Source: Candidatus Woesearchaeota archaeon (GTDB taxonomy: Archaea > Nanobdellota > Nanobdellia > Woesearchaeales > UBA10216). Taken from it: a stretch of DNA of 46,718 nucleotides. The notes beneath the pieces were generated by a model. That model was not told where the DNA came from, did no database searches, and saw only the letters and a list, made by a program, of their open reading frames with translations. Where the stretch lies: positions 1 to 46,718 of the forward strand of contig JAGVYT010000043.1 in NCBI GenBank assembly GCA_018303115.1, in the 5' to 3' direction. Position numbers and translations under genes: made by a program. Of the stretch, positions 6,212 through 39,150 are shown one piece after another. Position 1 is the first letter of the stretch; each line of letters begins with the position of its first letter.

Positions 6212-7578
6212 ATGATTCACCTCAGCAATTCTCTTCAGCATTACAAAAGGCCTGAGATACAGGAAGCAATAGCAGAGCACGCCTCCAACAAGGAGGTTGC
6301 TGCCCGCTTCAACGACCGCTTCGGAAAGAGGCCGGACGTTTTGCAGTATCCGAGTGATGTCCTTGAGATGGCTAGGAAAGGAGCAACTTCCTTCCACTGC
6401 TCAGAAGAGCTTTGGAGCAATCCATTGCAGCTAAAGCCATTGATGAACAGAAAAGAGCTTGACAACTTGCGAGTCGGTTGGGATTTGGTGATTGATATAG
6501 ATTACAAAGATTTTCAATATTCCCAATTAGCTGCGGATCTTATAATAAAGGCGCTACGTCATCATAACATTCATAGCGTTTCAATAAAATTTTCAGGAAA
6601 TAAAGGATTCCATATTGGAATGCCGTTTGAAGCGTTTCCTTCAGAATACAAAGGCATAGATATGAAACTACTTTTTCCAGACGCCACAAAGAGAATTGTC
6701 CTTTATCTTAACGAAAAAATAAAAACCCAACTTACAAAAAAACTTTTAGATGTCGAAGGCGGCAATATTGCTAAAATAGCAGAAAAACTTGGCGTTTCTT
6801 TCAACGTATTGAGCAATGTCGATAAGGTTAAAAAAATAGCAAACTTAATGCACAATTCATTCCTTAATACCGATTTAGGACTTATATCCTCACGACATAT
6901 GTATAGAATGCCTTATTCACTACACGAAAAATCAGGGCTTGTTTCATTACCTATACCTGTTGATGACATAATGGCTTTTGATAAAAATTCGGCAAAACCT
7001 GAGAAATTACAGCTTTCAGATGTAACATTTTTGGATAGGACTAAAGCAGCACCATCGGAAGCCGCTGACTTATTTACGAAAGCTTATGATGCAACGTTTG
7101 AAGTCCCCGTAGCAGATAAGACAGAAAAAGAGTATGAAATCCCCGCAGAGGCAGTGCCTGAAAAGTTCTTCCCGCCATGCATACAAAAGCTGCTGCTTGG
7201 GGTAGAGGACGGGAGGAAAAGAACATTATTCATCCTTACTAATTTCCTCGCAAGCTGCTACAAAAGCTGCTGCTTGGGGTAGAGGACGGGAGGAAAAGAA
7301 CATTATTCATCCTTACTAATTTCCTCGCAAGCTGCGGCTGGGGCTACGAAGCCATGGAAGAAAGACTGAGGGAATGGAACAAGAAAAACCGCGAGCCACT
7401 GCATCAAACATATTTCCTTGGGCAGCTGCGCTACCACAAGCAGCATAAAAAGAAGGTACTGCCGCCAAACTGCCACAACCAGGCATACTACCAGGACTTA
7501 AGAGTTAAATGCGAAGAAAGCATATGCAGCAAATTCAAGAACCCGGTAGGGTATGCGAGAAGGAAGGCCGGCCACTGA
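6212..7578 (+). pseudogene. priS: fused PriS / PriL-CTD-like DNA primase, reading frame broken by a 77-bp tandem duplication (possibly an assembly artefact)
   Basis: ORF 6212-7282 carries PriS motifs: DLVIDIDY, FSGNKGFHIG and SRHMYRMPYSLHEKSGL. ORF 7354-7578 continues a Cys-rich PriL-CTD-like domain (PPC..., LASC, PPNC, VKCEESIC). Deleting one 77-bp copy joins both frames into one 429-codon ORF (...FLASCGWGYEAMEERLREW...). Confidence 0.8.
7182..7335 (+). repeat. exact 77-bp tandem direct duplication (2 copies)
   Basis: 7182-7258 and 7259-7335 are identical base for base (TACAAAAGCTGCTGCTTGGGG...CTCGCAAGCTGC). 77 is not a multiple of 3. Confidence 0.95.
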
Positions 7579-13162: not shown

Positions 13163-13564
13163 ATGCAACCAGTTCCGGCAAAGTTTCCAAAGGCGCTGAA
13201 TCATGGATCGCTTATTGAAACTTGCGACAATTCAGGAGCAAAGCTGATAAGAATCACTTCAATAATTGGGGCCAAAACAGTAAAAGGCAGAAAACCCGCA
13301 GCTGCTACAGGCGACATGGTGCTGGCTTCTGTTAGAAAAGGCACCCCTGAAATGAGGAAGCAGGTTGTTTTTGCAGTCATTGTAAGGCAAAAGAAGGAGT
13401 TCAGAAGGCTCACGGGAGAGCACATAAAGTTTGAAGATAACGCGGCAGTTATTGTTAAAGATGAGGCAGGCAACCCAAAAGGAACCCTGATTAAGGGCCC
13501 AGTTGCAAAAGAAGTCTGCACGAGATGGCCGCAAATAGCAAAAATAGCCGGCATCATAGTCTAA
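13163..13564 (+). CDS. rpl14: 50S ribosomal protein uL14
   Basis: LIETCDNSGAKLIRITSIIG. SD-like AAGGAGGAG lies just upstream of the ATG. Confidence 0.95.
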   Translation: MQPVPAKFPKALNHGSLIETCDNSGAKLIRITSIIGAKTVKGRKPAAATGDMVLASVRKGTPEMRKQVVFAVIVRQKKEFRRLTGEHIKFEDNAAVIVKDEAGNPKGTLIKGPVAKEVCTRWPQIAKIAGIIV

Positions 13565-13565
13565 C

Positions 13566-13693
13566 GGGGGATATTCAAAATGAAAGCATACTCACTATCG
13601 TTCGTAGCCAAACTCACTGCCGTTCGTAGCTTTCGTCCCGAAAGTTTCATTTTGAAAGCAGGAACAGGGGGATATTCAAAATGAAAGCATACT
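13566..13693 (+). repeat. CGTTCGTAGC-core repeat element flanked by a 27-bp exact duplication of the rpl24 SD/start region
   Basis: GGGGGATATTCAAAATGAAAGCATACT occurs at 13566-13592 and 13667-13693 (period 101). Core copies lie at 13599-13608 and 13621-13630. A CTTTCG-TCC-CGAAAG hairpin lies at 13630-13644. AAAATGAAA (13577-13585) pairs with TTTCATTTT (13645-13653). The micro-ORF 13580-13684 (34 codons) ends in ATGA on the rpl24 start. Confidence 0.8.
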
Positions 13694-14052
13694 TTTCAAA
13701 AAGCTGGAATAGAAGCATACAACCCAGAAAGCAGAGGAAATACCGCTATAATGCCCACTTACATCTAAAACAAAAACTGCTTTCTGCACACTTATCTGCC
13801 GAACTACGAAAGCGTTACGGAAAGAGAAGCATCCCTGTCAAAAAAAATGATACGGTAAAGGTGCTTAAGGGAGGTTTTAAGGGTAAAGTAGGAAAGGTAA
13901 ATTCGGTAAGCATAAAGAAACTCTCTGCTTACATTGACGGTGTCGAATCTTCACGACGCGACGGAACAAAGGTCTTTGTGCCTGTAAAAGCCTCAAACCT
14001 CATGATTATCGAGTTGAACACGGATGACAGCAGGAGAATAAAAAATGAGTAA
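13681..14052 (+). CDS. rpl24: 50S ribosomal protein uL24
   Basis: KOW motif VKKNDTVKVLKGGFKGKVGKV; synteny. Confidence 0.93.
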   Translation: MKAYFSKSWNRSIQPRKQRKYRYNAHLHLKQKLLSAHLSAELRKRYGKRSIPVKKNDTVKVLKGGFKGKVGKVNSVSIKKLSAYIDGVESSRRDGTKVFVPVKASNLMIIELNTDDSRRIKNE

Positions 14053-35887: not shown

Positions 35888-37614
35888 AAACAGGAAAGAT
35901 TTACAGGATTGCAGGGCCGGTTGCTGTTGCAGAACTGGATGCGAGGATGTTTGACATAGCCCTTGTAGGCGATGAAAAGCTTCTTGGGGAAGTCATTCAG
36001 ATTAACGGCAACAGGTGCACTATTCAGATTTACGAAGACACCACAGGCCTAAAGCCCGGAATTCCGGTCGTCAATACAGAAGAGCCGCTTAACATTGAAC
36101 TAGGGCCAGGCTTACTAACTTCCATTTACGACGGAATTCAAAGGCCCCTGCCCCGTCTTAAAGAGCAGATGGGAGACTTCGTCAGGAGAGGAGCGACCGC
36201 TACCGGCATTGAGCGCAGGAAGGAATGGGAATTTAAAGCAACAGCAAAAAAAGGGGACGACATAACAGGCGGTTCTGTCATAGGAGAGGTTATGGAAGGG
36301 CAGATGCTCCATAAAATAATGGCCCCTCCGAATACAAAAGGAAAAATAACTGAAATAAGCTCAGGCTCTTTTACTGTCGATGAAGTCGTTTGCAAACTTG
36401 ACTCCGGGGATAAGATAAAACTGATGCATAAATGGCCTGTCAGAAAGCCAAGACCAACCTCCAAGAAGCTAATTCCAAACATCCCCCTTATTACCGGCCA
36501 GAGAATATTTGATGCCCTGTTCCCCCTTGCAAAAGGAGGAGTAGCAGCAATACCAGGAGGCTTCGGAACCGGCAAAACTGTAGCGCAACAGACGCTTGCA
36601 AAATGGAGCGATGCTGAAGTGATAGTCTACGTAGGCTGCGGGGAGCGCGGCAATGAGATGACTGAAGTCCTTACCGAATTCCCAAAGCTGACAGACCCGC
36701 GCTCAGGAAAGCCCCTGCTTAACAGGACTATTCTCATCGCAAACACATCCAACATGCCAGTGGCTGCTCGTGAGGCCTCAATCTACTGCGGCATGACCAT
36801 GGCAGAGTATTACCGCGACATGGGCTATAATGTGGCTGTGATGGCAGATTCCACCTCCAGATGGGCAGAGGCAATGCGGGAAATCTCTTCGCGCCTGGAA
36901 GAGCTTCCAGGGGAGGAGGGCTACCCGGCATACCTTTCAACAAGGCTCGCAGACTTTTACGAAAGAGCAGGCCGCTACAAAAACCTTAACAATACAGAGG
37001 GCTCCATTTCAGTTATCGGGGCGGTATCCCCTGCAGGGGGGGACTTCTCAGAACCCGTAACACAAGGCACGCTGAGAGTTGTCAAGTGCTTCTGGGCTCT
37101 TGACTCAAAACTTGCCCAAAGAAGGCACTTCCCTGCAATTAACTGGCTTACCTCTTATTCGCTTTACTTAAGCTCTCTTGAGCAGTGGTTCTCTGAGAAC
37201 GTAGCAGAAGACTGGAGAAGCGCTGTTGATAAAATTATGTCTATCCTGCAGGAGGAAGAAAAGCTTCTGGAAATAGTGCAGCTAGTCGGCTCTGACGCAT
37301 TGCCCGAGAGAGAGCAGGTAACCCTTCAAATTGCCAAACTCGCAAGGGAAATGTTCCTTCAGCAGAACGCCTTCCATGCAGTTGACACTTACTCAGAGCC
37401 GAAGAAAACCTATTCGTTTATGAAAACAATCCTGAAATACGGCGATTTGGCTTACAACGCGTTAGGCAGGGGCTCAAAAGTATCTGAGATAATATCAATA
37501 AAGTCAAAAGAAAAACTTTCAGATGTAAAATTTGAAAAGGACTATGAGAAGCTTCTTAATTCTATTGTTAAGGAAATGGAGTCTGAATTCAGCAGGCTGA
37601 AGGTGCAAAAATGA
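35884..37614 (+). CDS. atpA: A-type ATP synthase catalytic subunit A
   Basis: Walker A GGFGTGKT, the non-homologous region typical of A subunits, and MADSTSRWAEAMREIS. No intein. Confidence 0.96.
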   Translation: MKTGKIYRIAGPVAVAELDARMFDIALVGDEKLLGEVIQINGNRCTIQIYEDTTGLKPGIPVVNTEEPLNIELGPGLLTSIYDGIQRPLPRLKEQMGDFVRRGATATGIERRKEWEFKATAKKGDDITGGSVIGEVMEGQMLHKIMAPPNTKGKITEISSGSFTVDEVVCKLDSGDKIKLMHKWPVRKPRPTSKKLIPNIPLITGQRIFDALFPLAKGGVAAIPGGFGTGKTVAQQTLAKWSDAEVIVYVGCGERGNEMTEVLTEFPKLTDPRSGKPLLNRTILIANTSNMPVAAREASIYCGMTMAEYYRDMGYNVAVMADSTSRWAEAMREISSRLEELPGEEGYPAYLSTRLADFYERAGRYKNLNNTEGSISVIGAVSPAGGDFSEPVTQGTLRVVKCFWALDSKLAQRRHFPAINWLTSYSLYLSSLEQWFSENVAEDWRSAVDKIMSILQEEEKLLEIVQLVGSDALPEREQVTLQIAKLAREMFLQQNAFHAVDTYSEPKKTYSFMKTILKYGDLAYNALGRGSKVSEIISIKSKEKLSDVKFEKDYEKLLNSIVKEMESEFSRLKVQK

Positions 37615-37789
37615 AAGCATGCTCACTGGCGTTCGTAGCCAAACTCACTGCCGTTCGTAGCTTTCGTTCCGAAAGCAGACTCGCTGGCGTTCGTAGCTTT
37701 CGTTCCGAAAGTTTCATTTTTGGGTGTTCAAAATGAAAGCATGCTCACTGGCGTTCGTAGCTTTCATTTTGAGGTGTTCAAAATGAAAG
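37602..37789 (+). repeat. two tandem modules of the CGTTCGTAGC-core repeat element inserted at the atpA-stop/atpB-start junction
   Basis: The initiation-region motif GGTG(C/TTC)AAAATGAAAG occurs three times (37602-37617, 37723-37739, 37773-37789). Core copies lie at 37630-39, 37652-61, 37688-97 and 37752-61. GCTTTCG-TTC-CGAAAGC hairpins lie at 37660-37676 and 37696-37712. A perfect 11-bp stem joins AAAATGAAAGC (37730-40) and GCTTTCATTTT (37760-70). Micro-ORFs 37611-37736 and 37733-37786 are chained by ATGA overlaps. Confidence 0.8.
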
Positions 37790-39150
37790 AGTACAAAACC
37801 ATAAGCAGGGTTGCAGGGCCCCTTGTTTTTGTAAAGAAAACAGAGCCTGTTTCATATGCAGACATGGTAAAGGTGCTTCTCCCAAACGGGGAGGAAAAAA
37901 ACGCGCAGGTTCTGGACACTAGCGACGACCTTGTTGTAGTCCAGGTTTTCGAAGGCACTTCCGGAATAGACCTCAACACAAGGGTCAAGTTTCTCAACCA
38001 GCCGATGAGGCTCCATGTATCAGAGGAAATTCTTGGCAGAATCCTTTCAGGCTCCGGGAAGCCCATAGACGGCGGCCCTGAGATGGTTGCCGACAAGATA
38101 ATGGACATAGCCGGAGCAGCGATAAACCCCTACTCAAGAAGCAACCCCGAGGACTTCATACAAACAGGCATCTCAACCATAGATGCAATGAACACGTTAG
38201 TCAGAGGCCAAAAACTGCCTATTTTTTCAGCTTCCGGCCTTCCCCACAACGAAATCGCATTGCAAATTTCAAGGCAGGCAAAGGTAATCGGAAAGGAGAC
38301 AAACTTTGCGATTGTCTTCGCTGCCATGGGCATAACAAATGAAGAAGCCCAGCGCTTCATACAGGACTTTGAGCAAACAGGGGCTTTAGAGCGCTCTGCA
38401 GTTTTCCTCAACCTCGCAAGCGACCCTGCAGTTGAAAGGCTTCTGACCCCACAGCTGGCGTTAACTGCTGCAGAATACCTGGCATTTGAAAAAGACATGC
38501 ACGTTCTTGTTATCCTGACTGACATGACAAATTACTGCGAAAGCCTGCGGGAGATAGGAAGCGCCCGTGAAGAGATTCCTGGAAGAAGAGGGTATCCTGG
38601 ATACATGTACACCACGCTGGCAAACATATACGAGCGTGCAGGCATGATTAAAGGCAAAAAGGGCTCAATAACCCAGCTTCCAATACTGACAATGATTGGC
38701 GACGACATAACACACCCAATCCCGGATTTGACAGGCTACATTACAGAAGGCCAGATTGTTCTAAGCAGGGAGCTTCACCAGCGCAACATATACCCCCCAA
38801 TTGACGTTCTGCCTTCCCTTTCAAGGCTTATGAACCTAGGAATCGGCTCTGACAAAACCAGGGAAGACCACAAGCAAGTTTCTGACCAGCTCTACGCATT
38901 TTACGCTGAAGGGAGGGACTTGCGCGGCTTGGTTGCCATAGTCGGAGAAGAGTCCCTGTCCGAGCGTGACCGCAGGCTTCTGAAATTCGCTGCCGAGTTT
39001 GAAAGCAAATTTGTCAAGCAAGGCAAAAACGAGGACAGGGGCATCTCAGGCACCCTGGACACCGGGTGGAAACTGCTCTCTGAAATCCCTGAAAGCGAGC
39101 TTTCAAGGGTAAGCCCTGAAATGAGGCGCAAGTATTATGGCAAACGTTAA
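37783..39150 (+). CDS. atpB: A-type ATP synthase subunit B
   Basis: Track ORF 37720-39150 trimmed to ATG 37783 ([17 protein letters not shown], the canonical N-terminus). An in-frame ATG at 37741 inside the repeat is an alternative. Confidence 0.95.

Follow-up and report, generated by a model that had tools for sequence, protein, structure and literature searches.

Introduction

Small non-autonomous dispersed repeats of prokaryotes include miniature inverted-repeat transposable elements (MITEs), repetitive extragenic palindromes (REP) with bacterial interspersed mosaic elements (BIME), and the Correia elements of Neisseria (PMC3184786). Here we analyse a repeat that covers the start of the ribosomal-protein gene rpl24 in a 46,718-nucleotide contig of a Candidatus Woesearchaeota archaeon (JAGVYT010000043.1, assembly GCA_018303115.1). 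The whole stretch is called the window and supplies all window coordinates; copies found elsewhere are labelled L001–L077. The rpl24 repeat belongs to a family of small, orientation-specific cassettes in Woesearchaeota/DPANN archaea that has apparently not been described before, and it is probably best read as a mobile leader cassette that preserves expression of its host gene through translational coupling. Like MITE, REP and Correia elements, the cassette is short, non-coding, multi-copy, hairpin-forming and polymorphic for presence or absence, and may alter adjacent expression. Unlike them, it lies nearly always on start codons, is co-oriented with the gene, lacks terminal inverted repeats, carries a replacement Shine-Dalgarno (SD) motif and start, and contains a 22-nt block that is invariant across many species. 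We file it as a small dispersed non-autonomous repeat with an unprecedented target and way of staying harmless.

Rickettsia palindromic elements (RPEs), reportedly described by Ogata et al. in 2000, are said to be selfish repeats that reduced genomes carry in frame inside protein genes. The cassette resembles them in looking selfish, in being tolerated in compact symbiont genomes and in keeping frame-respecting lengths. RPEs are translated within the host protein, whereas the cassette has a separate upstream open reading frame (ORF) whose stop falls on a regenerated start, leaving the host protein unchanged except for codons 3–4. In ermC- and cat-type leaders and attenuators, translation of an upstream ORF through a hairpin arm frees a sequestered start. 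A translated hairpin arm that releases a downstream start would be common to those leaders and the cassette; the cassette differs in standing before dozens of unrelated genes, in being conserved at the nucleotide rather than the peptide level, and in showing no sign of regulated stalling.

A synthetic "bicistronic design" initiation cassette was reportedly built by Mutalik et al. in 2013. In natural archaeal gene pairs, ATGA overlaps mediate termination-reinitiation coupling (PMC6728339, PMC10666635). The cassette shares with such pairs a short leader cistron, an SD motif for the second cistron in the 3′ part of the first, and a stop/start overlap, and here too the leader ribosome would unwind structure at the second start. 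Unlike the bicistronic design it is natural; it also stands apart in being dispersed and apparently spread by insertion, in having a leader ORF that arises from duplication of the host start, and in its invariant core.

Transposed tRNA introns are known from Thermoproteales. Transposition of tRNA introns in archaea is referred to in PMC4090602, and Haloferax HVO_1309 has an intron in its 5′ untranslated region (UTR) (PMC7714728). Archaeal bulge-helix-bulge (BHB) introns resemble the family in that the homologue of a module nested in the cassette is a tRNA intron and the same sequence occurs at unrelated loci. The start-codon elements are unlike BHB introns in having no consistent BHB and in frame features that argue for retention in the mRNA.

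Organization of the repeat at rpl24

The repeat and the genes on either side of it comprise the following features, in which ATG1 is the upstream ATG, ATG2 the real gene start, and the anti-start a segment complementary to the start region.

13163..13564, + strand: rpl14 coding sequence (CDS), an ORF with its TAA stop at 13562–13564; the orthologue in L063 carries Pfam Ribosomal_L14
13566..13592, + strand: copy 1 of the 27-bp direct repeat, consisting of the element-type SD context GGGGGATATTCAAA plus ATG1-AAAGCATACT
13580..13684, + strand: upstream ORF of 34 codons, whose TGA (13682–13684) overlaps the rpl24 ATG
13587..13608, + strand: invariant 22-nt block CATACTCACTATCGTTCGTAGC (family consensus CANACTCACTRNCGTTCGTAGC), kept in orthologous copies
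13609..13644, + strand: nested 36-nt module CAAACTCACTGCCGTTCGTAGCTTTCGTCCCGAAAG, containing a second core (13613–13630) plus the hairpin CTTTCG-TCC-CGAAAG (13630–13644)
13645..13656, + strand: anti-start TTTCATTTTGAA, the 5′ arm of hairpin P3, identified by complementarity and by covariation across the family
13657..13674, + strand: P3 loop with the Shine-Dalgarno-like GGGGGAT (13667–13673)
13675..13686, + strand: 3′ arm of P3, TTCAAAATGAAA, which includes the real rpl24 start codon (13681–13683)
13667..13693, + strand: copy 2 of the 27-bp direct repeat; allele L068 keeps one copy only
13681..14052, + strand: rpl24 (L24e/L26 family) CDS, an ORF with Pfam Ribosomal_L26/KOW

The layout drawn in the original prediction was confirmed and extended. 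The 27-bp repeat GGGGGATATTCAAAATGAAAGCATACT is exact at 13566–13592 and 13667–13693, with a period of 101 bp, and between the copies lie the small hairpin at 13630–13644 and, partly within copy 1, two copies of the core CTCACTNNCGTTCGTAGC (13591–13608 and 13613–13630). The predicted complementarity of TTTCATTTT to the upstream start proved to span 12 nt (13645–13656 versus 13574–13585), and the same anti-start is an equally perfect 12-nt complement of the real start region (13675–13686). The resulting hairpin P3 has a 12-bp stem with a predicted energy of -9 kcal/mol (z = -3.2). The 34-codon upstream ORF (13580–13684) is present as described, its TGA overlapping the rpl24 ATG at 13681, and the proposed homology to a second locus, between atpA and atpB, amounts to 94% identity over 68 nt (13577–13644 versus 37608–37675). 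The core CTCACTNNCGTTCGTAGC has 6 matches in the window against 0.00 expected from 100 shuffles, four of them at 37622–37761.

A family of start-codon cassettes

When 185,579 species genomes were scanned for exact matches to the pattern CTCRCTNNCGTTCGTAGCTTTCRTY, 19 loci were returned from 15 assemblies, all of them Woesearchaeota/Nanoarchaeota-type metagenome-assembled genomes. A metagenome scan in which all third positions of the upstream-ORF codons were unconstrained returned 42 loci, 41 of which are real copies. Overall we count ~70 copies, in at least 15 Woesearchaeota/DPANN genomes plus many metagenomes. A common anatomy is found at 18/19 genome loci and 41/41 metagenome loci, and the genome loci are co-oriented at gene starts (18/19). 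Such an element has ATG1 and six bases, then the block CANACTCACTRNCGTTCGTAGC, followed by the anti-start GCTTTCATTTT and an SD-containing spacer that leads to the real start TTCAAA-ATGAAAG. The anti-start takes the form (T/C)T(T/C)CATTT..., the variable spacer after it usually has GGAGGT or GGTG, and the 3′ end, (TTCAAA / TTTGAA / TTAAAA)-ATGAAA(G/A), is the real start of a gene on the same strand. The basic form measures ~65–68 nt and the composite form 101–122 nt. Target genes include atpB (in four lineages), rpl14, rpl13, rps9, an epimerase and membrane proteins.

Two suggestions made for the window, that a dispersed element is tied to AAAATGAAAG-type initiation regions and that the start codon has been duplicated to create an upstream ORF ended by ATGA at the true start, are borne out by these copies, the first far beyond this genome. 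A third, that the element arose at rpl24 here and then spread, is not. The junction TTCAAAATGAAAGCA is the consensus of a family that occurs across no fewer than 15 DPANN species genomes and on 41 metagenome contigs, and the rpl24 copy was inherited, an orthologous 65-nt copy occupying the same junction in L076, whose L24 is 82% identical.

Searches for related sequences outside this set were negative. Viral, phage and plasmid collections held no real copy, leaving a virus- or plasmid-borne origin unsupported. Rfam at gathering thresholds gave no match at the element in the window or in L002 and L009, and at relaxed thresholds only nonsense matches (E above 5) at the locus. A protein search with the 41-aa upstream-ORF peptide found no match, an nhmmer profile of the core found no diverged copies in 458 kb of collected loci, and a full-text literature search that included the core sequence found no description of the element.

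Three observations concern individual copies. At L009 200–260, a GTG-variant core that lacks an ATG is found in the 3′ intergenic region between convergent genes and is followed by the hairpin GCTTTCCGTTAC-TATTC-GTAACGTAAAGC; the module is therefore not strictly limited to start codons. L037 carries a 33-nt extra segment, and the L053 spacer is ~53 nt longer than that of the orthologous L060 element, which indicates that the spacer accepts further insertions. Records L001, L003, L004, L006, L010–L014, L017 and L018 are titled "uncultured Methanosarcinales archaeon" (TPA_asm) in the GTDB set; these labels are probably wrong, because the records contain a DPANN-specific element, the L012 atpB is 79% identical to the window atpB, and the nearest named relatives of the window are Woesearchaeota.

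A purely local event at the rpl24 start, whether slippage, tandem duplication or mis-assembly, might explain why the 27-bp direct repeat is exact and accompanied by short internal repeats, and L066 and L071 break or gap inside the element. The 116-nt rpl14–rpl24 spacer is, however, identical in six contigs from other samples and assemblers, and because these contigs are independent we take the structure to be real and no assembly artefact. The core is moreover present in the ~70 copies of other genomes, with an orthologous copy in a different species. The family copies, the six contigs and the orthologous L076 copy together refute a local event, to which we assign a negligible probability.

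A conserved hairpin over the real start

Covariation was tested in A1, in which 22 elements that share the 68-nt spacing are aligned without gaps. The helix between anti-start and ATG2, of 12–13 bp, is paired in 91% of cells and shows compensatory changes at four pairs, one of them involving the wobble position of codon 2 in the host gene (AAA to AAG, matched by T to C). Its covariation score was reached by 0/500 shuffles, slid controls scored low, and RNAalifold independently predicts the same helix. Over 50 copies, 559/600 pairs are Watson-Crick. The alternative helix between ATG1 and the anti-start, with the core as its loop (8–11 bp), is paired in 82% of cells with no significant covariation. 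A mid hairpin, GCTTTCA/TGAAAGC, is confined to a subfamily; it pairs in many copies, again with no significant covariation.

The upstream ORF and proposed translational coupling

An ATGA overlap ends the upstream ORF in 35 of 50–51 non-redundant copies, and all three upstream ORFs in the window end in this way. The distance from ATG1 to ATG2 is 68 nt in 25 copies and of the form 3n+2 in 38/50, and the lengths of secondary insertions are in many cases divisible by three (36, 72 and 33 nt). Stops in the variable part occupy 16/548 codons in the upstream-ORF frame versus 56/543 and 61/505 in the other frames; 12 elements contain a stop against a shuffle mean of 32, and stops in the hairpin loop number 11/358 versus 71/697 (Fisher p = 2e-5), the copies being mutually related and the p-values therefore indicative only. 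This stop depletion is indirect support for a dependence of downstream on upstream translation. At L015 884–955, ATG1 and ATG2 are 69 nt apart with no stop between them, and the upstream ORF is fused in frame to a nucleotidyltransferase-like gene as a 23-aa N-terminal extension.

Start signals were compared at both ATGs. A TATA-like (TTTAAA-type) box lies 26–35 nt before ATG1 in ~12 loci, a distance that implies leaderless mRNAs. Elsewhere ATG1 has an SD motif 9–17 nt upstream (~10 loci), and at the other loci it falls at the stop of the upstream gene. SD-like motifs at typical spacing precede ATG2 in 35/50 copies versus 14/50 for ATG1. At rpl24 of L076, ATG1 keeps the native ATGAAAACA seen in element-free relatives, and at ATG2 the element's ATGAAAGCA leads into the native fourth codon. 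From these contexts the cassette sits after about nt 7–9 of the gene, whose first codons it restores, and ATG1 is, judged by the same comparison, the native start position.

Expression of the downstream gene probably proceeds by translation of the upstream ORF and termination-reinitiation at ATG2, a model that these sequence patterns suggest. The cassette would enter the first 7–9 nt of a gene beginning ATGAAA(G/A)CA, its own 3′ end supplying a replacement initiation region (SD-like GGAGGT/GGTG, TTCAAA, ATGAAAG). Ribosomes would begin at ATG1 on the gene's original signals and translate the upstream ORF of 17–41 codons (23 in the basic form) through the core and the 5′ hairpin arm, melting the hairpin that sequesters ATG2. 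They would then terminate at the UGA of AUGA and reinitiate at ATG2, aided by the SD motif in the loop. The hairpin would suppress independent initiation at ATG2 and so keep output tied to the native start; such coupling could let the insertion be tolerated in essential operons, rpl14–rpl24 and atpA–atpB.

Translational bypassing, exemplified by T4 gene 60 and the mitochondrial byp elements, would instead have the ribosome take off at AUG-AAA of ATG1 and land on AUG-AAA of ATG2, skipping the element. By analogy, the matching ATGAAAG sites could serve for take-off and landing, and a potential hairpin follows directly after the putative take-off site. No stop codon follows that site, however, an open frame ending exactly at ATGA would be unneeded, and ATG2 has its own SD motif. 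We consider bypassing very improbable.

Constraint on the core

The metagenome scan left third codon positions free, and they are nevertheless near-invariant: TCA in 40/41 copies, NCG in 40/41, TTC in 41/41 and GTA in 39/41. Two N positions that change the amino acid vary among the 41 metagenome copies. The flank CA-N-A, which lay outside the genome search pattern, is invariant in 58–59 of 59 distinct copies. Constraint therefore acts on nucleotides and not on the peptide; conservation at the peptide level was considered and rejected, as third codon positions are fixed while the NN positions alter the amino acid.

The same block has persisted in old copies. In sets of orthologous elements, ATG1 plus core are identical at 26–29/29 nt, compared with ~15–80% identity (mean ~40%) in the upstream 40 nt, 50–70% in the spacers and ~36–78% (mean ~60%) at CDS third positions. 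L007, L015 and L019 belong to one genome and have spacers unrelated to each other, so homogenisation of whole elements does not explain the invariant core. That old copies keep the core unchanged points to a sequence-specific reader, either a protein or an RNA, or else to some function required at every locus.

These data bear on a different view of the element, as a host cis-regulatory leader (operator or attenuator) in which the 22-nt core is bound by a trans-acting protein or RNA that jointly governs the translation or transcript fate of many housekeeping genes. Mobility would then be only the way the regulon was built, and the anti-start a two-state switch between ATG1 and ATG2. The invariance of the core in old orthologous copies despite diverged spacers and synonymous sites is what such a leader predicts, and, given the unrelated spacers within one genome, core conservation is not explained by recent transposition or whole-element conversion. 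The targets are often highly expressed genes (rpl24, rpl14, rpl13, rps9, atpB), alternative anti-start pairings exist with ATG1 (8–11 bp) or ATG2 (12–13 bp), and neutral sites are less conserved than the window element as a whole. Against this view, no trans partner was found, and the window has no antisense copy of the core. It does encode an archaeal RNase P RNA, to which the core is no more complementary than shuffles are. There is no Rfam family, the ATG1:anti-start helix lacks covariation, and both proposed switch states still allow translation. Presence/absence polymorphism within a population would also be unusual for an essential regulatory site. A regulatory leader is a possible explanation, less probable than the coupled cassette and compatible with it.

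The nested module and a tRNA intron

The nested 36-nt module recurs at 37640–37675, at 37676–37711 and in L026. A 43-nt homologue with the family core, at L002 1654–1696, interrupts tRNA-Val(GAC) at T-loop position 59/60. Deleting this insert in silico yields a perfect tRNA-Val(GAC), and ARAGORN and Rfam miss the gene when the insert is present; since the tRNA is intact only without its insert, that copy must be spliced. The predicted precursor fold combines the T stem, a UUCG:CGAA helix and a 3-nt AGU bulge, a relaxed helix-bulge-helix (hBH) motif.

If the element or its nested module were a BHB intron cut by the splicing endonuclease and joined by RtcB, a normal mRNA would result. This reading draws on the L002 homologue, on introns known in archaeal 5′ UTRs and in cbf5 mRNA (PMC7714728), and on the broad specificity of DPANN endonucleases (PMC3239211). 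A BHB scan of the start-codon elements, however, gave permissive and inconsistent matches only, none restoring a sensible mRNA. The tRNA geometry, if applied to the nested module, would remove 38 nt and fuse the upstream ORF in frame to L24. Splicing moreover gives no reason for stop depletion, 3n+2 spacing, ATGA overlaps or modules of 36 nt, a multiple of 3. We regard splicing of the start-codon elements as improbable.

History and variation of the rpl24 copy

In element-free relatives, whose L24 is 73–81% identical, rpl14 and rpl24 abut or overlap (TAATG, ATGA, or 1–7 nt). The original prediction had the rpl24 SD motif duplicated by the element. The duplication stands; the SD motif itself is probably element-derived and not native, and the element-free relatives lack such a spacer. 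In L076 the element has a 3′ end (AAGGAATATTCAAA) to which the context GGGGGATATTCAAA corresponds. Because this context resembles that end and not a native spacer, we take the 27-bp repeat for a young secondary rearrangement and not the original target-site duplication.

Without its 36-nt module the window rpl24 element is 65 nt long and identical to the L076 element at 59/65 positions, and third positions of rpl14 and rpl24 are 62–65% identical between the same two sequences. By this comparison the rpl24 element is old and constrained by purifying selection. The nested module is absent from the orthologous L076 element and was therefore inserted later, into GTAGC^TTTCAT, without disturbing the reading frame. 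Codons 3–4 of rpl24 (GCA TAC) are identical to the 5′ end of the element, which points to a rewriting of the first rpl24 codons by earlier recombination or excision at the element. The L24 N-terminus is MKAY in the window (13681–13692) and MKTQ or MKAQ in relatives (L073, L076, L077).

An empty allele with a 16-nt spacer had been predicted, and L068 is such an allele. It lacks exactly 101 bp, retains one repeat copy and is otherwise 99.9–100% identical to the window. In L072, with flanks 100% identical, the 122-bp composite is missing and only a simple element is found at atpB, and L071 has two simple elements around an N gap at the atp junction. Copy content at both window loci varies within the population, unless the short contigs are collapses. 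Other assemblies break (the start of L066) or have a gap (L071) inside the element, at window-equivalent positions 13607 and 37730; from these breaks the repeat family fragments DPANN assemblies at gene starts.

Tandem elements at atpA/atpB

The second occupied junction of the window holds two elements in tandem, with ATGs at 37611, 37733 and 37783. Their spacings, 122 and 50, are each 3n+2, and both upstream ORFs end in ATGA overlaps.

37611..37732, + strand: composite element e1, whose ATG at 37611 overlaps the atpA TGA; core at 37622–37639
37640–37675 and 37676–37711, + strand: nested 36-nt modules of e1, followed by the anti-start at 37712–37720
37611–37736, + strand: upstream ORF of e1, 41 codons, whose TGA overlaps the ATG at 37733
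37733..37782, + strand: simple short element e2, with core at 37744–37761 and an anti-start (37761–37772) that pairs with 37778–37789
37733–37786, + strand: upstream ORF of e2, 17 codons, whose TGA overlaps the atpB ATG at 37783
37783..39150, + strand: CDS of atpB (A/V-type ATPase B subunit), with Pfam ATP-synt_ab in L071

The e2 hairpin at atpB has 12 bp, with a predicted energy of -12.8 kcal/mol (z = -4.9). The atpA/atpB junction is also occupied by elements in L012, L028 and L050, and a 122-nt composite like e1, 95% identical, precedes a different gene in L026. Among window genes, only rpl24 and atpB start with ATGAAAG and both have an element; five genes starting with ATGAAAA have none.

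Mode of spread

Direct repeats anchored on the ATG are mostly 7–10 nt long, with a range of 3–33 (27 in the window and 33 in L035), and the two copies of a repeat may differ from each other (ACA vs GCA). When the family was compared with MITEs, dispersed copies and presence/absence polymorphism were found. The ends, by contrast, are direct repeats (ATGAAAG...ATGAAAG) and not terminal inverted repeats, inverted repetition occurs only inside the element, where the anti-start is set against the start regions, and no target-site duplication of fixed length is present. The lack of terminal inverted repeats, the variable repeat lengths, the differing repeat copies and the tandem copies lead us to favour, with less confidence than the coupling model, homology- or microhomology-guided copy-and-paste or start-context recombination over a cut-and-paste transposase. 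Spread by microhomology, as originally proposed, is possible.

Alternatively, the element may be a hairpin-guided remnant of a single-stranded DNA (ssDNA) transposon, like the palindrome-associated transposable elements (PATE) of IS200/IS605 or like REP sequences, moved by an HUH-type enzyme and inserted beside TTTCAT/ATGAAA, with the upstream-ORF features merely surviving selection. Strict orientation, a fixed adjacent hexamer repeated at the far end of the element, a conserved hairpin adjoining an asymmetric 22-nt block and the lack of terminal inverted repeats would all fit, as would the tandem copies and variable copy number at atpA/atpB. The C.A mismatches in the hairpin, which are G.U or G.T on the bottom strand, point the same way. 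No transposase was identified in windows of up to 8 kb around copies, where no HUH gene was examined, the repeat lengths vary (7–10 nt typically, also 27 and 33), the C.A excess rests on few independent events, and the viral, phage and plasmid collections hold no real copy. Extended pairing of the anti-start with the native flank upstream of ATG1 gave 166 pairs versus 166.9 in permutations, which is chance level, and target choice by such pairing was rejected. We consider an ssDNA-transposon remnant unlikely, and note that it is compatible with the expression model.

Other features of the window

The repeat lies within an archaeal ribosomal-protein operon of the order S3-L29-SUI1-S17-L14-L24-S4e-L5-S14, and the closest named L24 homologues are from Candidatus Woesearchaeota, at no more than 81% identity. 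At 7182–7335 the window contains an exact 77-nt tandem duplication in a primase-like ORF (6212–7282). Its length of 77 is not divisible by 3, so the duplication truncates the ORF and shifts the remainder into another frame (7354–7578); the duplication is either a real disruption or an assembly artefact.

Discussion

Several points weigh against a mobile leader cassette that acts by translational coupling. Upstream-ORF translation and reinitiation are deduced from statistics on phylogenetically non-independent copies, and 15/50 copies have no ATGA overlap (earlier stops, 1-nt length changes and one in-frame fusion), so that strict coupling is not obligatory. Mismatches in the hairpin are mostly C.A (22) vs G.U (5), which is the opposite of what selection on a sense-mRNA hairpin would leave and hints at a bottom-strand or DNA-level structure. 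The coupling model assigns no role to the most conserved part of the element, the 22-nt core. On the side of mobility, no mobility enzyme was found in the windows of up to 8 kb around copies, the family has neither terminal inverted repeats nor a fixed target-site duplication, and the shorter or empty alleles might conceivably have arisen where assemblies collapsed at direct repeats.

A bolder proposal would give the core a role. A new kind of archaeal mobile element, akin to mobile BHB mini-introns and co-opted by its hosts, may have the core and its GAAAG/CTTTC arms as its active module; we advance this tentatively and think it rather unlikely. If true, one mobile module would occupy tRNA T-loops, from which it is spliced, as well as start codons, where a coupled upstream ORF rebuilds the start. 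A conserved trans factor (protein, rRNA or sRNA) would read the core, with selection keeping each copy, and dozens of DPANN housekeeping genes would share one portable cassette for translation initiation and control.

The practical consequences for Woesearchaeota are that these elements break assemblies, make strain-level indels, mislead start calling and hide upstream ORFs. A module common to a tRNA intron and to mRNA leaders would make archaeal intron mobility directly testable, and a 22-nt signal that an entire DPANN lineage conserves before ribosomal-protein, ATP-synthase and other housekeeping genes points to an undiscovered trans factor or mobility machinery. The coupled leader cassette, if we read it correctly, would be a natural counterpart of engineered bicistronic initiation cassettes and a new way for selfish DNA to persist in compact genomes, rendered harmless in essential operons through start duplication and coupling.

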